A DNA stretch of 64,000 nucleotides from a virus, in the IMG/VR virus record IMGVR_UViG_3300042908_001045, positions 1 through 64,000 of that record. One strand, written 5' to 3'. Numbering within the stretch: position 1 is the stretch's first letter; each line of letters starts with the position of its first letter. Positions 1 through 60,290 of the stretch are shown in pieces. Both the position numbers and the translations under genes were made by a program. Below the pieces are notes generated by a model. The model had not been told where the DNA came from and did no database searches. It saw only the letters and a list, made by a program, of their open reading frames with translations.

Positions 1-17
1 CTCTCAACTACTCCTTT

Positions 18-53
18 ATCATAAACTACTTTTATTTTACCGTCAAGTAGTTT
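18..53 (-). promoter_or_regulatory. sigma70-type early promoter (TTGACG-17-TATGAT) with AAACTAC/GTAGTTT inverted repeat; drives a gene left of the window
   Basis: Minus strand TTGACG 46-41, TATGAT 23-18, AGGAG RBS at 15-11. Confidence 0.7.
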
Positions 54-148
54 AGAGAAAAAAGTTTTGGATACAAAAGTGCTTTACAGCTAATCCAAAT
101 TACAACTTTTAACTCTTAAACTTCTTGAAAAATCAACAAAAGAGTGCT

Positions 149-499
149 TTATAGCAAAACTCTCCACTCTCTACACCAGTTTTCAAACTCTGGTGATTGC
201 ATATTCACATTGTGCGGCAACACATATCTTGCCTCTATCTCGGTTTTGTACAAGTGTCTCCCATTAACAGCTTTAGCAGCTGCTAATCCAGCTCTCGTGG
301 CTGGAAAATATCTATTCTGTTCTTCTAGCTCGTCATCTCCTAAAACAACGACAGAAACACAGTAGCACGCTATTAGTCTGTCTTTGAAGACAGACAATCT
401 ATTCGCATGCCACTGTACTGGACGTTCTAATGCTTTTGTCATACTTCTCCTGTGGGTGTAAACAGCTTCCCACGACTGCCTTTCGGCAGTTTCGTCCAT
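149..499 (-). CDS. hypothetical protein
   Basis: 116-aa ORF, co-oriented downstream of 527..1690. Confidence 0.55.
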   Translation of the reverse strand: MDETAERQSWEAVYTHRRSMTKALERPVQWHANRLSVFKDRLIACYCVSVVVLGDDELEEQNRYFPATRAGLAAAKAVNGRHLYKTEIEARYVLPHNVNMQSPEFENWCREWRVLL

Positions 500-44694: not shown

Positions 44695-44898
44695 ATGAGT
44701 AATATTGAACACCCAAAACATTATCAGCAAGCAGATATTGAGTGCATTGACGCAATTAAAGCAGCATTGTCTTCTGAAGAGCTAAAAGGCTTTATAAAAG
44801 GGAATATCATAAAGTACACTTGGCGAAGTGACCATAAAAACGGATTAGAAGATCTCCAAAAAGCTCAATGGTACTTAAATTGGTATTTGAATTTATAG
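44695..44898 (+). CDS. DUF3310 protein
   Basis: HPKHY....IECIDAI...GF.KGN.IKY.WR...KNG.EDL.KA.WYL. Confidence 0.9.
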   Translation: MSNIEHPKHYQQADIECIDAIKAALSSEELKGFIKGNIIKYTWRSDHKNGLEDLQKAQWYLNWYLNL

Positions 44899-45828
44899 CT
44901 TAATTAGCTTATTGCCTATAACTTTGTATTGCTTCAACCAGTTATAGGCAGTAGTTTTAGAAATATGTAAATAAGTTTTACACCAAGCAAATGATTTTCC
45001 TTGATTCAAAGCATTGATTACAGCAATTTTCAATTCTGTGCTATAGCCAGGTCTTCCTAGTGCGCCAGGGTTTTCCACAAATTGATATTTACAGTTTTTA
45101 CATAAATATTGTTGTTTTTGTTTTCTTTTCCCGTTTTTAACAATATTTTTACTCAAACAAAGAGGACAAAACAAAATGTTGTTTACAATATTTTTAAGTA
45201 ATTCTATACCTTGTTTTTCTATCTGCTTAATCTGATATACAGATAATCCATACATATTTTTTATTTCTTGTATTTTAAAATCATGTATATGTATTAACCT
45301 AATTATTTGAGCATGTATATCAGGAATTTTTTCTAAAATAATCTCTAATTCCTGTATAGAAGAATTATCGTAATAACTAATTTCTGGTAAATCTAAACAA
45401 GTTTTTTGGTATGCTTTACTAATTTCTTCAACTTTTTCTGGAGTTATATTTAAAAGTTTTACTGCACATTCATATGACATGTTGTTCTTACGTGCATAAC
45501 GTTTAATTGTCTGATGCGTTTCTTGTATTGCCCTAGGAATTTTTATTATTTTATCTTTATCTCGCAAGTACATCAAAATAGATCCGTTAATAAACGGTAG
45601 CGCAAAACTAGACAACTTTTCTGATTTATTTGGATTATATCTTTCTATGGCTTGAATTAATCCCATACTGCCAATCTGAATTAAATCGTCTAAAGGAGTA
45701 GAACATGTTTTTTGCATTTTGCTAGCGACAGAATACACTAATCCCATGTTTTGCTCTACTAATTTATTTCTAGTAGTTATGTTTTTGTCTTTAAAATATT
45801 TTATTAACAGCTGTTGGTTGTCATACAT
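44893..45828 (-). CDS. SigF-like sigma factor fused to an IS1 InsA-like Zn-ribbon/HTH domain
   Basis: N.GLV..VA, DDLIQIG.MGLI.AIERY.P, SSFA.P.I.G.I..YLRD; C-terminal CPLC..KNG...Q.YLCK.C.YQF...ISKTT.YNW. Confidence 0.85.
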   Translation of the reverse strand: MYDNQQLLIKYFKDKNITTRNKLVEQNMGLVYSVASKMQKTCSTPLDDLIQIGSMGLIQAIERYNPNKSEKLSSFALPFINGSILMYLRDKDKIIKIPRAIQETHQTIKRYARKNNMSYECAVKLLNITPEKVEEISKAYQKTCLDLPEISYYDNSSIQELEIILEKIPDIHAQIIRLIHIHDFKIQEIKNMYGLSVYQIKQIEKQGIELLKNIVNNILFCPLCLSKNIVKNGKRKQKQQYLCKNCKYQFVENPGALGRPGYSTELKIAVINALNQGKSFAWCKTYLHISKTTAYNWLKQYKVIGNKLIKL

Positions 45829-47715: not shown

Positions 47716-48747
47716 ATGCCATTAGCCACAGCATCTGTTGTTTTACAAAGTTATACACTTGATTTAATGCTTTTGGGACTTAATGTTTTTGGCGCTTCAA
47801 ACAGATTTGTAGCCAAAGATATTTTAACAGTCCAGAATAATGCTGCGGTTTATGACAAAAGTATTATTTTAAAAAGTAACTCAAGTACTGGAACTTATTT
47901 AAGAGCTGGAACAGGAATTAGTTTTAGTGGTGTTAATTACAGAAATCAAGTAGTAGTAGCAGAAGACATTACTGTAACTGGATCTAGTGGTTCTGTTACA
48001 TCAGTAAAAGTAGAGCCATTGTTAAAACCATTGTCTAGTGGAGTAACTGGGACTGTTTTAGCTCCTGTTAGAATGATTCTTAATTCAGTTGACACAACTA
48101 ATAATATTGACACTTGGCGATTTGTAGATTCAATGACAACAATTGAAGGGTTAAGCCCATTTACTAGAGCAGTGATAAGTATTGTTAATCCCGTGGCTGG
48201 CTCTTCTCCTATAATGATACCTCAAAATGCTAATCTTGATTTTGGTTCTTTAACTCCAATTAATCCTGATGTTGTTTTTTTAAATTCAACATCCAGCTCA
48301 GTTATTTATTTTAATGGTAGCCCAAATACACTAAATATTTCTGCTGGTTCACAAGCAAGTTATTTAACTGGTTCTATTCCATTGTGTGGTATTCAAACAA
48401 TGGATTTAAGTAATCAAGATACTCAAATAGATATTACAACGTTTCAATCTGGACTTGGGACAGATTCTAACACAGTAAGATATTCTCGCTCGTATTCAAT
48501 TTCTGGCATTTCATTGTCTGGGGATGAGGCACTTGAAAAAATAGTTAAACCAGCTGCTGGACTAAAATCTATATCTAATGGGAAAGAAGTGTATGCAATA
48601 GCTACTTTTCCTGATGGAGAAAGAATAGAAGGAGTTGCTGTAATAAACAATTTGAATTTACCTACCAATCAAAATGAAGTTAAGAAATATTCATTTACTT
48701 TAACTTTTCTTGGTAAAAATTTTAATTGGGATTCTCCTATAATTTAA
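47716..48747 (+). CDS. tail tube-like protein, paralog 1 (one inserted domain)
   Basis: Shared N-terminus MPLATA and C-terminal GIQT.DLSNQ...NQNEVKKYSFTLTF. Confidence 0.65.
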   Translation: MPLATASVVLQSYTLDLMLLGLNVFGASNRFVAKDILTVQNNAAVYDKSIILKSNSSTGTYLRAGTGISFSGVNYRNQVVVAEDITVTGSSGSVTSVKVEPLLKPLSSGVTGTVLAPVRMILNSVDTTNNIDTWRFVDSMTTIEGLSPFTRAVISIVNPVAGSSPIMIPQNANLDFGSLTPINPDVVFLNSTSSSVIYFNGSPNTLNISAGSQASYLTGSIPLCGIQTMDLSNQDTQIDITTFQSGLGTDSNTVRYSRSYSISGISLSGDEALEKIVKPAAGLKSISNGKEVYAIATFPDGERIEGVAVINNLNLPTNQNEVKKYSFTLTFLGKNFNWDSPII

Positions 48748-48805
48748 TAAAGCTAAAGTTGGATATATCTGGCAAGTATAAAGTAAGAAAAGGATTAAAA
48801 GTCTT

Positions 48806-51800
48806 ATGCCATTAGCCACAGCATCTGTTATTTTACAAAATTACACACTTGATTTGATGCTTTTAGGGACTAGTGCGTCTGGAGCGTCTAATAGATTTGT
48901 GGCTAAAGATATTTTAACAGTTCAGAGCAACGCAGCTATTTACGATAAAGATATTGTATTAAGAACTAGTTCAACTAGTGGAACGTATTTAAGAGCTGGG
49001 CTTGGAATTAGTTTTGACGAATCTGGCTATAAAAATCAAGTAGTAATCGCACAAGATGTTACAATTGCCAGTAATGTAAATACTAACGTCAAAGTAGAGC
49101 CGTTATTAAAACCATTATCTAGTGGAGTAACCGGTACTGTCTTGGCTCCCATTAGATTACAATTAACTTCAGTTGACACTACCAATAATATTGATAGCTG
49201 GTATTTTATAGATTTAATGCCAAAAATTCAAGGAAACAGTCCTTTTACTCAGGCAAAAATAAAAACTACTAATTTACCTGCTGATTCTCCTTCTGTAATG
49301 GTAAAAGAATCAAAACTTGCTTTTGGTAATACTGTTTTAACAATTGCAAATACTGATGTTATAAAAACTCCAATAAATTTATTTAATACGTTTGTTCGAG
49401 TTCATATAGCGTCGGTAGATTCTACTAATTTTGTTGATAGCTGGCGTTATATAGATTTTATGCCAACTATACAGGGAGAAAGTCCATTTACTCAATCAAA
49501 GTTAAGAGTTAGTAATTTAGACCGCAACACACAATCAGTAGTAGCTCCATATTCAAGTCTTGTTTTTGAAAATATTAATGTAAGTTTAACGGTATCTCCT
49601 GAAATATTTATTAGCTTTCTTGATACAATTAATGATGGTAATAGCTTATTTACTCAAGCTGTTATAGAGATGAGAAAACTACCTTTTGATTACAGCTCAA
49701 TAACAGTACCTGATTCAACTTTTGTTTTTAATAATGTTCCATTAGCCACAGAAGTCAGTATTAGACCGCAAATTACTTGGGTTGACGAAGGCGTTGATGT
49801 TTACATACATTCAATTAACACAAATAATAATATCGATACTTGGCGTTACATAGATTTTATCTCAAATATTGATAATGGAATTAGTCCATTTACTCAAGTA
49901 AATTTAGGAGTTAATAGATTACCATCTAACGCTCCATTTGTACAAATTCCGGATTCGGTACTTATTTTTAATGGAATTAGTACAAGTAAAAGCGTGCCTC
50001 CTGAGTTGTATGTTAGCTCTGTTGATACAAATAACAATGGAAATATTCTATATACCAAAGTTGTTGTAAAAACAAGAAAGATACCTTTTGATTTTTCATC
50101 AATAACAATACCTGATTCAGCATTTACTTTTGGAAATGTTCAGCCAACTGCAAACGTTAATGCTGAAGCACGATTATCTTGGGTTGATGAAGGCGTTGAT
50201 GTTTATATAGATTCAATTAATACAAGCAATATTAATACTTGGCGTTATATAGACTTTGTCTCAGATATTGACAATGGAACTAGCCCATTTACCCAGGCAA
50301 GCATAAAAGTTAGTAGATTGCCATCTAACGCTCCATTTGTGCAAATTCCGGATTCAGTACTTACTTTTGATGGAATTAGCACAAGTAAAAGTGTACCTCC
50401 TGAGTTGTATGTTAGTTTTGTTGGTACAAATAATTTTATTGATACTTGGCGATTTATTGATTCAATGCCAACAATTCAAGGTAGTAGTCCATTTACACAA
50501 GTTATTTTAAAGACAAGAAAAATACCTTTTGATACTTCTTCAATAGCTATACCTGATTCAGCTTTTACTTTTGCAGGTATTCAGCCAAGTACAGATGTGT
50601 CTAGCATTAAAAACATTTTTTTATCTGGTGGTGATACTGCAACAGTTTATTATGCTGGTAGCCCAGATACTTCATTAATTTCTGTTGGATTGTTCAATAC
50701 ATTTACAGCTTTTGTCCCTACTTCTCCTGGGTACAATGGAGTTATAATTAACCAAAATTCTGCATCAATAGTTTATTTTGATGGCGCTCCCAATCAAGTA
50801 TCTGTTGCTGTTGGATCATTGTTTTCTTACGTTACCAATTTTATTGATACATGGCGTTTCATTGATTTAATGCCAACAGTTGAATCAATTAGTCCGTTTA
50901 CACAAGCTAAAATAACAGTTACAGAAACGCCAGTAGAATACAATTTCGTAACAATACTTCAGTCTAGTCTTGTTTTTAATAATATTAGTGCAATTGAATC
51001 TAGCGTTGTAGTCAATAGAAACTCAGAAGCAATAATTTATTTTAATGGTAATCCACGTACCTTGCCTATTTCTATTGGATTGTCGTCTAATCCTTTTCCA
51101 GTATCAGTGCCTTCGTTAAATGACGTTAGAAATACTCTATTATCTGGTAACGATACTGCAACAATTTATTTTAATGGCATTCCAGGTACATTGCCTATTT
51201 CAGTAGGTTTATTTAACACATTTACAGCTTTTGTCCCTACTTCTCCTGGGTACAATGGAGTTATAGTTAACCAAAATTCTACATCAATAGCTTATTTTGA
51301 TGGCGCTCCTGGCACGGTACCTATTTCAGTAGGTCTCTTTAATTCTTACGTTACCAACTTTATTGATACATGGCGTTTCATTGATTCAATGCCAACAGTT
51401 GAATCAATTAGTCCGTTTACGCAATCTAAAATAAAAGTTACAAAAACGCCAGTAGAATATGCCTCAGTGACTGTACCTCAATCTAGTCTTACTTTTAATG
51501 GGCTTACTGCACTCGAAAGTAGTGCTATAGTTAACAGAAACTCAGAAGCAATAATTTATTTTAATGGCAGCCCACGGACTTTACCGATTTCTGCTGGGTT
51601 AACATCTAGTTCTTTCCGTGTAACTGTTCCTCCATTGTCTGAAATTAAAAATACTGTTCTATCTGGCAATAATATAAAGAGAACAGTTTACTTTGATGGA
51701 CTCCCAGGTACGTTGCCTATATCTACTGGATTGTTTAACACATTCACTGCTTTTGTTCCTCCAACACCTGGATATAATGGAGTTTTCATTGCTAGAAATT

Positions 51801-52411
51801 CCAGGACTACAGTTTACTTTGATGGTGAGCCAAATACATTGCCTATTTCTACAGAATCATCTAATACTTATGTAACAGGAATTTTCCCTTTTTCTGCTGC
51901 ACAAGAAATGGATTTAGATGAACAGGAAATACAGTTTTATGGAACAGATCCTGGTATTACTGAAATTTATTTTAACGGCAGTCCAAATACATTGCCTATT
52001 TCAGCTGGATCCCAGACAAACTATTTAACTGGTCCTATTCCTCTTTGTGGTATTCAGGCAATGGATTTAAGTAATCAAGATACTCAAATAGATACAACAA
52101 CATTTCAATCTGGTGTTAAAACAGATGCTAGTGTTGTACGTTCTGCACGGTCTTATAATGTATCTGGGATTGCTTTAGTTGGGGATGAAGCATTGGAGAA
52201 AATAGTCAAAAAAGCAAATGGGCTAACTCCAACTTCATTTGAATTTGTAGGAGATGAAGTGTATGCTGTAGCCACATTTCCAGATGGAGAAAAGATAGAA
52301 GGCGCTGCTTTGATAACCAATCTAAGTCTACCTGGCAACCAAAACGAAGTTAAAAAGTATTCTTTTACTTTAACTTTTCTTGGTAAAAAAATGTCTCAAA
52401 TTTTACTTTAA
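48806..52411 (+). CDS. tail tube-like protein, paralog 2 (nine nested inserted domains)
   Basis: Same termini plus internal repeats. Confidence 0.65.
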   Translation: MPLATASVILQNYTLDLMLLGTSASGASNRFVAKDILTVQSNAAIYDKDIVLRTSSTSGTYLRAGLGISFDESGYKNQVVIAQDVTIASNVNTNVKVEPLLKPLSSGVTGTVLAPIRLQLTSVDTTNNIDSWYFIDLMPKIQGNSPFTQAKIKTTNLPADSPSVMVKESKLAFGNTVLTIANTDVIKTPINLFNTFVRVHIASVDSTNFVDSWRYIDFMPTIQGESPFTQSKLRVSNLDRNTQSVVAPYSSLVFENINVSLTVSPEIFISFLDTINDGNSLFTQAVIEMRKLPFDYSSITVPDSTFVFNNVPLATEVSIRPQITWVDEGVDVYIHSINTNNNIDTWRYIDFISNIDNGISPFTQVNLGVNRLPSNAPFVQIPDSVLIFNGISTSKSVPPELYVSSVDTNNNGNILYTKVVVKTRKIPFDFSSITIPDSAFTFGNVQPTANVNAEARLSWVDEGVDVYIDSINTSNINTWRYIDFVSDIDNGTSPFTQASIKVSRLPSNAPFVQIPDSVLTFDGISTSKSVPPELYVSFVGTNNFIDTWRFIDSMPTIQGSSPFTQVILKTRKIPFDTSSIAIPDSAFTFAGIQPSTDVSSIKNIFLSGGDTATVYYAGSPDTSLISVGLFNTFTAFVPTSPGYNGVIINQNSASIVYFDGAPNQVSVAVGSLFSYVTNFIDTWRFIDLMPTVESISPFTQAKITVTETPVEYNFVTILQSSLVFNNISAIESSVVVNRNSEAIIYFNGNPRTLPISIGLSSNPFPVSVPSLNDVRNTLLSGNDTATIYFNGIPGTLPISVGLFNTFTAFVPTSPGYNGVIVNQNSTSIAYFDGAPGTVPISVGLFNSYVTNFIDTWRFIDSMPTVESISPFTQSKIKVTKTPVEYASVTVPQSSLTFNGLTALESSAIVNRNSEAIIYFNGSPRTLPISAGLTSSSFRVTVPPLSEIKNTVLSGNNIKRTVYFDGLPGTLPISTGLFNTFTAFVPPTPGYNGVFIARNSRTTVYFDGEPNTLPISTESSNTYVTGIFPFSAAQEMDLDEQEIQFYGTDPGITEIYFNGSPNTLPISAGSQTNYLTGPIPLCGIQAMDLSNQDTQIDTTTFQSGVKTDASVVRSARSYNVSGIALVGDEALEKIVKKANGLTPTSFEFVGDEVYAVATFPDGEKIEGAALITNLSLPGNQNEVKKYSFTLTFLGKKMSQILL

Positions 52412-52427
52412 CAAATAAGGAGAAATT

Positions 52428-53225
52428 ATGCCTTTAGCTACCGCTCCAGTTATTTTACAAGATTATTCTTTAGAAGTAATGCTATTGCCTTTGGTTACAA
52501 GTGGGTTTGCTGCTGGAACTTCTGATAGAAACATTAGTTCGTTAAGACGTGTTCTTACTTGTACTACTCAAGTTGCACCTCCTACCAGCGGTGGTGTAGC
52601 TACACTTGCATTGACCACTGATGAAGGTAGTAGTTCTTCTCCAACAATCATTAAGGAAGGCACTGGATTATCGTTTATAGAACCACTTGCGCAAAATGCC
52701 CCAGCTGGAACTGTTAGAACTAGAATTCAAGTAATGGCTGCTGAAGATAAAAGTATTGCGCATGGCGCTAGTGCTACTGATTTGAAAGTAATTGGACTAG
52801 ACAGAACTATTGCTGCAAATAGCACGGCTGCATTAATTGAGGGTTTACTCCCATTAAGCGGTATTCAAACACTAGATTTGAGTAATCAAGAAACTCAAGT
52901 TGATACCACTTCTTTCCAATCTGGATCCGGAACAGAAATGGCAATGATTCGCGTGGCTCGTGCCTATTCCGTGTCTGGTATTGCATTGGCTGGAGATGAG
53001 GCGCTCGAAAGAGTAGTTAAACCAGTTGCTGGATTTCAGGGAGAATTTTTTGGTAGAGAAATTTATGCTGTAGCTACATTCCCAGACGGTGAAAGATTGG
53101 CAGGTGCTGCTAAAGTAACTGCGTTTAACTTTCCAGCCAACCAAAACGAAGTTAAAAAGTACAGTTTTACGCTAACATTTATGGGTAAATCCTTTGAATG
53201 GAATCCTCCATATTCTATTAGCTAA
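52428..53225 (+). CDS. tail tube protein, paralog 3 (probable major tube)
   Basis: Strong AAGGAG RBS; same termini. Confidence 0.7.
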   Translation: MPLATAPVILQDYSLEVMLLPLVTSGFAAGTSDRNISSLRRVLTCTTQVAPPTSGGVATLALTTDEGSSSSPTIIKEGTGLSFIEPLAQNAPAGTVRTRIQVMAAEDKSIAHGASATDLKVIGLDRTIAANSTAALIEGLLPLSGIQTLDLSNQETQVDTTSFQSGSGTEMAMIRVARAYSVSGIALAGDEALERVVKPVAGFQGEFFGREIYAVATFPDGERLAGAAKVTAFNFPANQNEVKKYSFTLTFMGKSFEWNPPYSIS

Positions 53226-53227
53226 AT

Positions 53228-53953
53228 ATGTCTTTTTCCCAACCACTTTGCAACAGCTCTCTTGACGTAATGCTGCTTCCCAGCAACAGTGCGGGAAGCA
53301 CTATTACTGACGTTACGAAGGTGACAGCTTTAATTGCTCAAACTGCTAACATTGGGTCTTCTCAAATCTATTTGCAAGTCGTCGGTGGATCTTACTTTGT
53401 TCCCGCCGGCATTGCTTTGTCTTTTGCGGGAACTTCTGTTAGTGGCGTAGCGTCTAGGCGAAGACAAGTTGTAATATCTCAAGATGTTGTGTTAACAACA
53501 AGTCCACTATTAGTTCCGGTAGAGCCTTTACAATATCCGGTACTGCAAACTGATAGCGCAGTCGTTGTACCTGGATTACTCCCAATTAATGGTATTACGA
53601 CTTTAGATATTTCAGCTCAAGAAACTTCTGTTGACACAACTAATGCTTCATCTCGTAAAGGAGTGAATAGCGTTTTCATACGCAGGGCGATCAGCTGCAA
53701 TGTTAGCGGCATTGCGTTGGCTGGAGACAAGGCGTTGGAGACAGTAATTAAGCCAGCTGGAATATTCTCTAATAGTTTGTATGGTAGAGATATTTATGCT
53801 GTAATTACTTTACCTAATGGAGAGAGAATTGTTGGAGTGGCTAAAGTTGGTGGCATATCTTTCCCAGCTAATCAAAACGAAGTTATGAAATATTCGTTTA
53901 ACTTAATATTCCAAGGAGATTTACTTGAGTGGACTTCTGCTTTTAGTTTTTGA
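53228..53953 (+). CDS. tail tube-like protein, paralog 4
   Basis: GITTLD...GIALAGD.ALE...NQNEV.KYSF. Confidence 0.65.
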   Translation: MSFSQPLCNSSLDVMLLPSNSAGSTITDVTKVTALIAQTANIGSSQIYLQVVGGSYFVPAGIALSFAGTSVSGVASRRRQVVISQDVVLTTSPLLVPVEPLQYPVLQTDSAVVVPGLLPINGITTLDISAQETSVDTTNASSRKGVNSVFIRRAISCNVSGIALAGDKALETVIKPAGIFSNSLYGRDIYAVITLPNGERIVGVAKVGGISFPANQNEVMKYSFNLIFQGDLLEWTSAFSF

Positions 53954-56605: not shown

Positions 56606-56973
56606 TACATTACAATACCTAAGTTACTAGGAATATTAGATCTGACTTGACTAGCAGTGATTTTATTACTTATAACATATTGGTTTTCTCCAATTAAAGA
56701 TAAAACCCATTCTCCGCAAACACATTCTTTAAGATTTTGTCCTGTAGGACTCCAAAGAAACGACTTGTCAGCATATTGTCGTAACACGTTCAAAATATCG
56801 TTTACTTCGGATTCTGAGTAGACTGGGCTGCGAACATCCCATTCTACAATAGGAAATATTCCCTGAGTTAAAACTTGACTATAATTATCTCCTAGTCTAG
56901 TTTTAGCTGTAGGAATAAGAGTCTTTTGGCTTGTTTGCCAAGTAGGAGTAAGATAAAGAATTGGTAACGTCAT
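56605..56973 (-). CDS. minor tail protein M-like (distal tail)
   Basis: LGDNYSQ...GI, SFLWSP, VC.EW. Confidence 0.7.
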   Translation of the reverse strand: MTLPILYLTPTWQTSQKTLIPTAKTRLGDNYSQVLTQGIFPIVEWDVRSPVYSESEVNDILNVLRQYADKSFLWSPTGQNLKECVCGEWVLSLIGENQYVISNKITASQVRSNIPSNLGIVM

Positions 56974-59900
56974 GATGCTATAAAATAACCAATTGTGTAA
57001 TTAAAAGTGGATGCAGCAGAAGATACAATATTTAGTGCTGTGTTTGGAGATAAGCGTATTTCTCTGTTTTGCGCTAAATTAGCCTCTCCTTCCATTCCTT
57101 GGGAAGACAAGAAAAATCTAGCAACATTATCAGCACCATTTCTAATTGTAACTGTTTGTGCAGCAGTTCCTTCTAATTGTACTCTAATATATGATACATA
57201 AATTCTATTACCAGTTGGGACAGGAGCGCCAACAACAGTAGTTGTGGTAGCAGTAGTGATAGTATTTGTGATGAACACCATAGTTCTATCACTAATCGAC
57301 TGCTGAGTAAGTGTAATTAATATTTTCAACAATCCAATCAAACTTGTTGTGTTTGCATTGTAGTCAATGCTTGCCCAGCTATCTATAAACGATATACTAT
57401 CAATATTTATAATTGGAGCATCTGAAATAGCACCAATAGACACAATATTATTAGCTTCTGTAAGAAGTCTTTTGGTTAAAGAGATTAAACTAGCAGTACC
57501 CGTGTCAGTGGCTGCCGAACTATCTGTCGTCGTACCAATAGATGTAATTACTCCTTTTAAAAGTGCAACTAAACTGGCTGTTCCTGTAGTGGCTGCTGTA
57601 TCTGTTGTTGTTCCAATAGACGCAATATTATCTGTTTCTTGTAATAGTTTTTTGATTAAAGATATTAAAGTAGCAGTACCTGTGTCTGTTGTTGCTGCCG
57701 CATCTGTTGTTGTTCCTAAAACTGCACTAACATTACCAATTTGCTGGTTAATAGCAGTAACTGTGTTATCTCCATCGGTGCTTAATAGCCTTTTAAGTAA
57801 TGATATTAAGCTGGTATTTTGAGTGTCTGTAGTAGCTGCACTATCTGATGTGGTGCCAATTGAACTAATTAGTCCTTTCAATAATGAAACAACACTAGCG
57901 TTGCCAGAAGTGACTGCTGCATCAGATGTTGCTCCAATAGAAGCAACATTGTCTGTTTCTACTAACAACCGTTTTAATAAAGCTATAACAGTAAAAGTAC
58001 CTGTATCTGTTGTTGCTACTGCATCTGTTGTTGTTCCTAATGATGCAGTAACATTGTTTATTTGTTGATTGATAGCAGTAACTGTGTTATCTCCATCGGT
58101 ACTTAACAATCTTTTAAGTAGTGATATCAAACTAGTGTTTTGAGTGTCTGTCGTAGCTGCCGTATCAGAGGTAGATCCAATAGAGGCATTTAAGCCTTTA
58201 ATTAAAGACACTAAACTAGCAGAACCACTATTTGCCGCTGCATCTGAAGTTGTCCCAATAGAAGCAATGTTGTCAGTTTCTTGTAGTAATCTTTTGAATA
58301 AAGCAATTAAGCTAAACGTCCCGCTATCCGTTGTTGCCGCTGCATCTGCTCTAGTTCCAAGTAAAGTGTATATATCACTTAATTGTTGATTAGTGCCTGC
58401 CACACCGTCTGTTTCAAGTAGTCGTTTAATTAAAGATATTAAACTTGCATTGGCAGTGTCTGAAGTGGCCGAATTGTCAGTAATAGACCCTATTGCATTA
58501 TTTAATCCTTTAATTAAAGCTACTAAACTAGCGTCGCCTGATGCTGCTGCAACATCTGAAATGCTTCCAATTGATGCAATATTGTTAGTTTCTGATAACA
58601 ACCGTTTTAGCAACGCTATGACAGTAAAAGTACCTGCATCTGTCGTTGCCGCTGCATCTGATGTTGTTCCTAGCGCTGTAGTAACGTTACTTATTTGTTG
58701 ATTAATAGCAGTAACTGTATTATCTCCATCAGTTGCTAACAATCTTTTAAGTAACGATATTAAACTTGCATTTTCAGTATCTGTAGTGGCTGCACTATCT
58801 GATGTAGTGCCAATTGAAGTATTTAATCCTTTAACTAACGACACTAAGCTAGCAGAGCCACTGTTTGCCGACGCGTCTGAAGTAGTTCCAATAGAGGTAA
58901 TATTGTCAGTTTCTTGTAATAATCTTTTAATTAAAGATATTAAAGTAGCAGCACCTGTATCTGTCGTTGCTGCCGAGTCAGAATTAGTTCCAATAGATTG
59001 ATTTAATCCTTTGATTAAAGAGATTAAACTAACATTACCGGATATAGCAGCTAAATCACTGGTAGTTCCAATTGAAGATATGTTGTTAGTTTCACTTAAT
59101 AATCGCTTAAACAGTGATATTAACGTAAATACTCCATCATCTGAAGTAGCTAATGAATCATTGGTAGTTCCAATTGAAGCAAGTATATTAGATAAATGCT
59201 GATTAATACTGTTTATGTTACTGCTATCCCCATCAGTACTTAACAATCTTTTGAGTAGAGAAATTAAAGTAGCTGAGTCAGTATCTGAAGTTGCTGGTGT
59301 GTCTGATGTTGCCCCAATAGTTAAATTAAGTCCTTTAAGTAAACTAACTACACTAGCATTACCAGATGTAGCAGCTGTATCCGACACTTCTCCAATTGAT
59401 GCAATATTATTTGTTTCTTGTAATAATTTTTTAAGTAAAGAAATTATGCTAAATGTTCCTGTATCGTTAGTTGCGACTGCATCTGTTGTGTTTCCTAAAG
59501 TTGTGGTGACATTACCAATTTGCTGATTAATAGCAGTAACTGTATTATCTCCATCACTTGCTAATAGTCTTTTAAGCAATGATATCAAACTAGAATTTTG
59601 GTCATCTGCTGTAGCTGCTGCATCAGAAGTAGATCCAATGGAAATGTTCAAACCTTTAATTAAAGATATTAAACTAGCATTCCCAGAGTTTGCCGACGCG
59701 TCTGAAGTTGCCCCAATCGAAGCAATATTATTAGTTTCAGTTAATAGTTTTTTAATTAAAGATATTAAACTAAATTGTCCATCATCTGCTGTAGCTGGAC
59801 TATCAATTGAAGTTCCGATAGAATTGTAAATATTAGCAAGTTGTTGATTAATGCCTTGGATATTGCCGCTATCGCCATCTGTACTTAATAGTCTTTTTAG

Positions 59901-60290
59901 CAAAGATATTACGCTAGCATTGGCTGTGTCTGATGTAGCAGGACTATCATTTATACTGCCAACAGAAGTTTCAACTTTATTATTTAGTTCAACACACTCT
60001 AATACAGACCTTTGCCCAAAGTCTATTAGTCTTTTTGTTAAAGCTATTAAAGTTCCATCACTAACGCTATAGTCAATTTGTGTTAAATCATCGGGAACTG
60101 TTATGTTATCGAGATCAGTAATAGTGTCCAGCAATTTGACGGTATCTATAGTTTTAGACGCAAAATCACTAATATCACCAACATCAGCTGAGGAAAATTC
60201 TGGAATATGTGGGTTAGCTTCTGTTCCCGCTCCTGATACTTTCCTGTATTTTACAGCACCAGCTCCATCAATATATCTAGCAGAACTCAT
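56970..60290 (-). CDS. long repetitive fibre-like virion protein
   Basis: Dozens of IG.T.D.AA..D....SLISL.K.L units. Confidence 0.7.
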   Translation of the reverse strand: MSSARYIDGAGAVKYRKVSGAGTEANPHIPEFSSADVGDISDFASKTIDTVKLLDTITDLDNITVPDDLTQIDYSVSDGTLIALTKRLIDFGQRSVLECVELNNKVETSVGSINDSPATSDTANASVISLLKRLLSTDGDSGNIQGINQQLANIYNSIGTSIDSPATADDGQFSLISLIKKLLTETNNIASIGATSDASANSGNASLISLIKGLNISIGSTSDAAATADDQNSSLISLLKRLLASDGDNTVTAINQQIGNVTTTLGNTTDAVATNDTGTFSIISLLKKLLQETNNIASIGEVSDTAATSGNASVVSLLKGLNLTIGATSDTPATSDTDSATLISLLKRLLSTDGDSSNINSINQHLSNILASIGTTNDSLATSDDGVFTLISLFKRLLSETNNISSIGTTSDLAAISGNVSLISLIKGLNQSIGTNSDSAATTDTGAATLISLIKRLLQETDNITSIGTTSDASANSGSASLVSLVKGLNTSIGTTSDSAATTDTENASLISLLKRLLATDGDNTVTAINQQISNVTTALGTTSDAAATTDAGTFTVIALLKRLLSETNNIASIGSISDVAAASGDASLVALIKGLNNAIGSITDNSATSDTANASLISLIKRLLETDGVAGTNQQLSDIYTLLGTRADAAATTDSGTFSLIALFKRLLQETDNIASIGTTSDAAANSGSASLVSLIKGLNASIGSTSDTAATTDTQNTSLISLLKRLLSTDGDNTVTAINQQINNVTASLGTTTDAVATTDTGTFTVIALLKRLLVETDNVASIGATSDAAVTSGNASVVSLLKGLISSIGTTSDSAATTDTQNTSLISLLKRLLSTDGDNTVTAINQQIGNVSAVLGTTTDAAATTDTGTATLISLIKKLLQETDNIASIGTTTDTAATTGTASLVALLKGVITSIGTTTDSSAATDTGTASLISLTKRLLTEANNIVSIGAISDAPIINIDSISFIDSWASIDYNANTTSLIGLLKILITLTQQSISDRTMVFITNTITTATTTTVVGAPVPTGNRIYVSYIRVQLEGTAAQTVTIRNGADNVARFFLSSQGMEGEANLAQNREIRLSPNTALNIVSSAASTFNYTIGYFIAS

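Follow-up and report, generated by a model that had tools for sequence, protein, structure and literature searches.

A tail-tube paralog of a freshwater siphovirus with half-domains in balanced-bracket order: a predicted nest of self-inserted domains found at two depths

We examined a window of 64,000 nucleotides (nt), positions 1 to 64,000 of the IMG/VR virus record IMGVR_UViG_3300042908_001045, and within it a gene whose 1201-amino-acid (aa) product is a tail-tube protein with a long insert of repeated half-domains, here called A and B. The gene is the second of four tandem tail-tube paralog genes spanning 47716-53953, with products of 343, 1201, 265 and 241 aa in that order:

47716-48747, plus strand: the 343-aa paralog, with one un-nested A+B domain, the minimal form
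48806-52411, plus strand: open reading frame (ORF) of the 1201-aa protein
52428-53953, plus strand: the 265- and 241-aa tail-tube paralogs, both insert-free

The tail-tube assignment draws on profile matches, on structure and on gene neighbourhood, with a terminase gene upstream, gpK-like and J-like tail-tip genes close by and syntenic paralogs in Cylindrospermopsis phages (see below). Pfam family PF06199 (Phage_tail_2) matches the 1201-aa protein at aa 1080-1194 with 25.9 bits against a cut-off of 23.8, and the cut-off is also passed by the 343- and 265-aa paralogs, with matches in the C-terminal ~115 residues; the 241-aa paralog, at 19.6 bits, falls under it. The 1201-aa protein also matches PHROG 820 and 1407 (major tail protein). 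Its split core (aa 4-~100 plus ~1060-1200) superposes on solved tail tubes with Z 10.7-12.0 over 116-136 residues (8qhs_A, Z 12.0 with 125 residues aligned; 9occ_B, 11.8; 6tba_5A, 11.8; 6v8i_EB, 11.5; 6yeg_A, 10.7). Sequence identity in these superpositions is just 10-16%, and a phmmer search of the PDB sequences with the 265-aa paralog gave no match. The solved chains, from monocin MttP (8qhs), Shigella phage Sf11 (9occ), RcGTA (6tba), 80alpha (6v8i) and SPP1 (6yeg), have the same split-core fold and, at 130-172 residues, no space for an insert of hundreds of residues. We show that the tube domain of the 1201-aa protein consists of aa 1-115 together with aa 1077-1201, with ~960 residues inserted in one loop.

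A reading made earlier from the sequence alone (the sequence-only reading) had described the insert of the 343-aa paralog as one A half followed by one B half, and that of the 1201-aa protein as nine of each, two of the A halves shortened, in the order AAAAAAA BB A BBB A BBBB. Motif search and a hidden Markov model (HMM) scan agree on this order and confirmed both descriptions. In the 343-aa paralog the A half has its core (SPFT) at aa 147 and the B half its core (YFNG) at aa 197. The A cores of the 1201-aa protein lie at aa 145, 226, 281, 360, 415, 493, 561, 696 and 869, and the B cores at aa 614, 656, 744, 787, 828, 917, 961, 1003 and 1054. The A halves measure 54-81 aa and the B halves 34-43 aa. 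The shortened halves are A3 and A5, from which the (N/D)xW(R)(Y/F)ID hairpin is missing, so that this conserved Trp/Arg/Asp hairpin is present in seven of the nine A halves. Independently of the HMM, a tblastn search of the genome with its own 343-aa paralog found eight stretches inside the 1201-aa ORF, with expect values (E) from 1e-20 to 7e-4.

Read as brackets, with each A half opening a domain and a B half closing it, the string resolves into seven levels (A7-B1, A6-B2, A5-B4, A4-B5, A3-B7, A2-B8 and A1-B9) and two side domains, A8-B3 (S1) and A9-B6 (S2). The parts are listed below with the partners that this reading predicts; AlphaFold2 (AF2) confidence is given as the predicted local distance difference test (pLDDT).

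48806-49150, plus strand: N-terminal part of the tail-tube core (aa 1-115), AF2 pLDDT 83-96
49151-49393, plus strand: A1 (aa 116-196), outgoing half of level 1, partner B9 (motif, HMM); it retains the 'TPIN' A/B-junction motif of the 343-aa paralog
49394-49597, plus strand: A2 (aa 197-264), level 2, partner B8 (motif, HMM)
49598-49792, plus strand: A3 (aa 265-329), shortened, RKLPFD type, level 3, partner B7; host of level 4 and S2
49793-49999, plus strand: A4 (aa 330-398), level 4, partner B5; holds indel junction 1
50000-50194, plus strand: A5 (aa 399-463), shortened, RKIPFD type, level 5, partner B4; host of level 6 and S1
50195-50398, plus strand: A6 (aa 464-531), level 6, partner B2; part of the outer split domain of the two-layer model
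50399-50734, plus strand: A7 and B1 (aa 532-643), the innermost, contiguous level 7; in the two-layer model (range 76..180) matched by small beta-barrel domains at Z 3.2-4.4
50735-50839, plus strand: B2 (aa 644-678), return of level 6
50840-51130, plus strand: A8 and B3 (aa 679-775), contiguous side domain S1, second insert of level 5; E 1.5e-16 against the insert of the 343-aa paralog (tblastn)
51131-51358, plus strand: B4 and B5 (aa 776-851), closing levels 5 and 4; the stretch includes indel junction 2
51359-51649, plus strand: A9 and B6 (aa 852-948), contiguous side domain S2, second insert of level 3; E 1.7e-20 against the same insert (tblastn)
51650-51877, plus strand: B7 and B8 (aa 949-1024), closing levels 3 and 2
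51878-51925, plus strand: relic after B8 (aa ~1021-1043), a copy of the strand with which the C-terminal tube core begins
51926-52033, plus strand: B9 (aa 1041-1076), return of level 1, nearest to the B half of the 343-aa paralog
52034-52411, plus strand: C-terminal part of the tail-tube core (aa 1077-1201) and stop codon (PF06199); AF2 pLDDT mostly 81-94, with two dips to ~49-65

The halves A8 (50840-51001) and A9 (51359-51520) begin at the Trp hairpin and have no counterpart of the first strand of the other A halves. At the missing position MAFFT places the strand that ends the B half before it, and the first strand of A8 and A9 may be either shared or missing.

Sub-types of the two kinds of half follow the predicted pairs. 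The RK(I/L)PFD-type A halves (A3, A5 and A7) pair with LSG-type B halves (B7, B4 and B1), and A2, A4 and A6 pair with the GYNGV-preceded B8, B5 and B2. This agreement had been pointed out in the sequence-only reading, together with the match of the outermost B half (B9) to that of the 343-aa paralog, and both points were borne out. A third sub-type also fits, in which TPVEY-type A halves (A8 and A9) pair with NRNSEAIIYFNG B halves (B3 and B6). When partners are joined, the summed A+B length is 97-117 aa in all nine pairs. Bracket balance was considered as stand-alone evidence and rejected, since a string of nine A and nine B halves is balanced by chance with a probability of 1/(n+1), or 10%. 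The distance matrices of the A and B halves were then compared under alternative pairings. Under the bracket pairing their congruence is significant, with a Mantel r of 0.63 that 11 of 20000 random pairings reach, and pairings in the same order or in simple reverse order give r of about -0.1 to -0.17. The same test on the 12 pairs of a longer natural variant, described next, gives r 0.66, reached by one of 20000 random pairings. Part of this signal comes from the periodic sub-types, and the congruence is therefore supportive rather than decisive.

The longer variant is a 1506-aa protein (P0005), the only close homologue of the 1201-aa protein among 5.8 billion clustered proteins. This long form (1505-1506 aa) occurs in six viral or metagenome contigs (L001-L005 and L042). 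Its half-domain order is AAAAAAAAA BB A BBB A BBB A BBBB, that is 12 A and 12 B halves, and the string is again balanced. The two proteins are 97-100% identical outside two separate in-frame indels. In the outgoing arm the long form has an additional 132 aa, corresponding to two A halves, and in the returning arm an additional 173 aa, corresponding to one A and three B halves. By this count of halves, the two indels jointly are exactly one three-domain module, with two stacked levels and one side domain. At the DNA level the 1201-aa gene shows clean recombination at each of the two sites, with one switch between nt 49931 and 49951 and the other at nt 51319/51320. The ratio of A to B halves is thus 1:1, 9:9 and 12:12 in the three proteins, and every copy recovered at full length is balanced. 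Scans of metagenomes, viral sequences and genomes turned up neither a third depth of nesting nor a complete gene that is unbalanced, in a small sample of one short form and about eight long-form contigs. Fragments in the cluster are 5'-truncated, in keeping with the long form.

A gene so rich in repeats, or its 1201-aa form, could be a mis-join or a repeat collapse in assembly: the DNA comes from a metagenome-derived virus record, and public contigs often break inside the gene (fragments P0036-P0049). Against this, the DNA repeats are just 60-86% identical, and both short-form junctions are bridged with 0 mismatches by Logan k=31 contigs from three runs of three studies (X1, X2 and X3); for two of these runs both the sample and the study differ from those of the window. 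In a fourth Logan run the sequence at junction 1 is that of the long form. The long form has moreover been assembled independently in at least seven contigs, and short and long forms are both in frame and balanced. Repeat collapse was rejected on the divergence of the repeats and the bridged junctions, and we consider an assembly artefact of any kind extremely improbable. Many public contigs stop within the gene (L008-L010 and L041 in addition to the fragments above), and short-read assemblies break at repeats; databases probably list too few full-length versions of the gene.

The repeats have a period of ~399 nt in the first arm and of 519 nt in the second. Such periods resemble those of ordinary tandem arrays, and the recent length change has the form of an unequal crossover inside each array. 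Both would be expected if A and B modules had arisen by tandem duplication and folded alone, like beads on a string, with no long-range pairing. The B halves are, however, just 34-43 aa long, the A and B counts match exactly in all three proteins, the two indels between the variants correspond in module content, and the second arm shows the sub-type order of the first in mirror image. Whether the nest itself grew by self-insertion is a separate matter. The sequence-only reading had argued for repeated self-insertion rather than tandem duplication, and this part of it is not established: the only observable change of depth consists of two indels of the unequal-crossover type, one in each arm, and as read from the two genes the change between 1201 and 1506 aa is a tandem-style gain or loss inside each array. 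The relic after B8 aligns locally with aa 1072-1094 at a score of 51, compared with 17.8 +/- 3.7 for shuffled sequences, none of which reached 51 in 2000 trials. Its presence shows that an early duplication took the tube flank along. An inserted copy would account for the relic, as would a tandem duplication of a B half with its flank, and the relic does not separate the two.

Structure prediction was carried out on the full protein and on a shorter construct. The full-length AF2 run (aa 2-1201, 29-row alignment) gave a tube core that is mostly confident (aa 5-100 and ~1060-1190). The insert was left unmodelled because no deep alignment could be built for it: phmmer with the whole protein against 1.84 billion representatives returned just 31 matches, and the A/B domain occurs there in two clusters only, its own and that of the 343-aa type. 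Pfam and PHROGs have no match within the insert, and an ESM Atlas search with a single A/B domain gave scores of 0.77-0.78, under the lead level, with no Atlas model of the domain. A two-layer construct was then designed on aa 455-684 (A6, A7, B1 and B2), with an alignment made from paralogous units and trimmed of misplaced row tails. An alignment built from the 343-aa paralog and repeat fragments had been dropped before folding, as MAFFT misplaced rows onto the N-domain of the tube. In the alignment that was used, MAFFT set the contiguous single domains (the 343-aa insert and the side domains), unprompted, on A6 plus B2, with A7-B1 as a gap.

The two-layer model has a mean pLDDT of 63 and a predicted template modelling score (pTM) of 0.51, with strands mostly at 65-86. 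Its VIA-align matches fall into two classes, one over model range 76..180 and the other over ranges 9..221 or 5..228; those of the second class cover 61-81 residues on compact domains of ~65-90 residues and skip 76..180. Both classes match the barrel domain of M42/TET aminopeptidases (2fvg, 3kl9 and 2gre in the 76..180 class; 3isx, 1ylo, 5ds0 and 2cf4 in the outer class) and barrels of the translation-factor domain-II type. Since both classes match the same families, the outer domain is predicted to be formed by the two ends of the construct around the inner one. The Z scores, 3.5-4.6, are too low for the fold to be named further than 'small closed beta-barrel', and Foldseek with the two-layer model against PDB and BFVD returned nothing at E <= 0.001. 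An AlphaFold model had been proposed earlier as a check, with the expectation of domains formed from distant A/B pairs. The two-layer model agreed with this, weakly, in that its outer split and inner contiguous units match the same barrels, and the full-length model did not inform the question. With moderate confidence, the model thus contains one domain formed from two distant segments and enclosing another, for two of the seven levels.

For independently folding tandem modules, the lack of confident long-range packing in the full-length AF2 model is a further point in favour, but AF2 and VIA-align give a compact domain from both ends of the two-layer construct. Together with the matched counts, indels and sub-type order, this leads us to consider independent modules improbable. 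A different possibility is that the chain does run out and back as a hairpin rod, without discrete nested domains or with another partner scheme, for example as a continuous two-layer beta structure or with halves swapped between neighbouring subunits of the tube ring. With pLDDT low in the full-length model and the fold matches weak, the exact packing could accommodate such arrangements, and the absence of a first strand from A8 and A9 hints at strands shared between neighbours. The paired A+B lengths are, however, uniform, inner contiguous and outer split units match the same single-domain folds, and the 343-aa paralog holds exactly one such unit. We judge a rod of this kind to be unlikely, to about the same degree as the independent modules.

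The reading that we prefer is a nested architecture, which from the sequence and the two-layer model is likely. One family of small beta-barrel domains of ~100 aa, each with an A half and a B half, would be nested in itself, the next domain being seated in the loop between the A and B halves of each. The chain would ascend through A1-A7, turn at the contiguous A7-B1 and descend through the B halves, closing one domain per step. Levels 3 and 5, which have the shortened A halves, would each host the next level and a contiguous side domain. The repeat unit would then be a three-domain module encoded in two separate pieces, to which the outgoing arm contributes ~132 aa and the returning arm 173 aa, and the rod would change in length by one module through matched unequal crossovers in both arms. 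The sequence-only reading had described the same course, out through the A halves and back through the B halves, with seven levels and two side branches projecting from the tail tube. Four independent lines (sub-type congruence, the matched indels with both short-form junctions bridged, the MAFFT alignment and the two-layer model) support the course of the chain with moderate confidence, and we infer the projection from the tube. The rod may be branched, roughly 20-30 nm long and directed away from the tube exterior, where it might serve for weak, reversible adhesion to the host surface or to sheath polysaccharide, as proposed for other tail-tube decorations; the Trp/Arg/Asp hairpin is a candidate contact site. 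The wider proposal is of a length-adjustable, branched virion rod made by recursive self-insertion, with seven levels here and nine in the co-circulating variant, past the six-level record discussed below, and changing through compensating crossovers only. We hold this wider proposal to be fairly likely, with less assurance than the nested architecture itself.

Several observations weigh against nesting. The full-length AF2 model has a pLDDT of 25-45 over the whole insert and is uninformative either way. The two-layer model is just moderate, its A-B contacts are inferred from aligned ranges, and its alignment contained gap-spanning single-domain rows that favour a nested solution. The fold matches are weak, with all VIA Z scores below 5. 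Much of the Mantel signal reflects periodic sub-type classes and could be obtained from matched tandem arrays, and the chance probability of a balanced string, given above, counts in the same direction. The missing first strand of A8 and A9 is not explained by the nesting model, and just two depth variants are known.

The loop that carries the insert can be compared among relatives, which were taken from the phmmer homologues of the whole protein (P0007, P0008, P0009, P0011 and P0022). Unrelated domains occupy the equivalent loop of the tube fold in relatives, for example a 'VEVGD'-type domain that is present in one copy in P0008 and in two tandem, un-nested copies in P0011; P0009 and P0022 have Ig-like C-terminal extensions instead. 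The occurrence of unrelated domains at this position implies that the loop is a permissive insertion site, and we infer that it faces the outside of the tube. Relatives have two or three tail-tube paralogs, usually one that bears an insert and one that is plain. The four tandem paralogs of this virus suggest a heteromeric or position-specific tube. A copy of the 343-aa paralog, 80% identical, was also found on a 1039-bp contig (L030, NBNH01000337.1) of an 'Actinomycetales' metagenome-assembled genome, most likely a phage contig that was mis-binned.

The source virus record measures 86,305 bp, has inverted terminal repeats and a G+C content of ~35%, and is rated complete by CheckV. Genes and ORFs noted around the tail-tube paralogs are as follows:

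32641: large terminase, upstream of the tail-tube genes
38524: helicase
44893-45828, minus strand: sigma-factor-like ORF of 311 aa
45909-46868, minus strand: fibre or tailspike-like protein of 319 aa (PHROG 23837 and 4636)
55817, minus strand: gpK-like gene
56970-60290, minus strand: ORF of 1106 aa, with no PHROG match
61074, minus strand: J-like gene

As judged from these genes, the layout of the region is that of a lambda-like siphovirus. Public runs with the 1201-aa or 1506-aa gene are lake and freshwater metagenomes, and we take the 1201-aa protein to be a subunit of the tail tube in a lambda-like siphovirus of lake water. The nearest isolates are the Cylindrospermopsis phages Cr-LKS4 and RM-2018a (45% identity), which have three syntenic tail-tube paralogs downstream of a minus-strand sigma factor gene; in Cr-LKS4 the synteny of the tail-tube genes involves genes g25-g30. 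The hosts of the related phages are filamentous cyanobacteria. The 311-aa sigma-factor-like ORF lies on the opposite strand within the structural module and has a Cys-rich C-terminal tail that is Zn-ribbon/helix-turn-helix-like; the sigma factor at the syntenic position in Cr-LKS4 is shorter. The 319-aa fibre-like protein, placed between the head-tail and tail genes, contains short 'NT.GY.NTAIG'-type repeats. The 1106-aa ORF, located between the gpK/gpL-like genes and the J-like gene, may from its position be a tape measure or a fibre.

The closest known parallel is Si3 of the cyanobacterial RNA polymerase beta' subunit (RpoC2), a set of nested sandwich-barrel hybrid motifs (SBHMs), several of which combine segments that lie far apart in the chain (PMC10895346). 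A survey from 2026, covering 2.7 million classified domains, presents the six-level nesting of cyanobacterial RNA polymerase, with bifurcating hosts, to illustrate the most complex situation (PMC13114784). The phage insert would resemble Si3 in that one small beta domain family is inserted into its own copies and builds an elongated arm from one loop of a host domain. It would be deeper than the six-level Si3, with seven levels, or nine in the variant, the host not counted. Unlike in Si3, the host domain is a virion tail-tube protein and not an enzyme, and the predicted nest is regular, with a three-domain period, and polymorphic in depth among genomes that are 97-100% identical. As for similarity to SBHMs, the insert has no Pfam match, and no RNA polymerase chain is among the top 50 VIA rows, all of which have Z below 5.

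Tail-tube decorations provide a second comparison. In siphophages these domains have been proposed to aid adsorption to carbohydrate of the cell surface (PMC6669499). Decorations such as Ig-like, FN3 and carbohydrate-binding modules, for example in the lactococcal 936 group, are non-essential-looking beta domains on the outside of the tube, as the domains described here would be. To our knowledge, decorations of tail tubes occur singly or in tandem, as a rule at the C terminus or appended through a frameshift. The phage domain differs from these known decorations in lying inside a loop of the tube fold and, as predicted, in being nested up to nine deep. No Ig, FN3 or carbohydrate-binding module was found in the insert by Pfam or PHROG, or by Foldseek in PDB and BFVD at E <= 0.001, and the best VIA rows are small closed barrels rather than Ig-like sandwiches, at a weak Z of at most 4.6.

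If the nesting is real, no other known case of recursive domain insertion would be as deep or as regular, and it would be the first in a phage structural protein. Two genes that are 97-100% identical and one module apart constitute a natural experiment on the evolution of discontinuous domains. The two coding pieces of the module lie ~1.3 kb apart in the short form and the forms differ by exactly one module, which points to selection for A/B balance; if so, 'bracket-balanced' protein evolution would be present as a population polymorphism in lakes. Protein designers could use the arrangement as a template for rigid rods whose length can be programmed and whose start and end coincide. For the freshwater phages related to the Cylindrospermopsis phages, the architecture predicts a visibly bristled, bottle-brush tail, and one may ask how a single tube accommodates four tail-tube paralogs.

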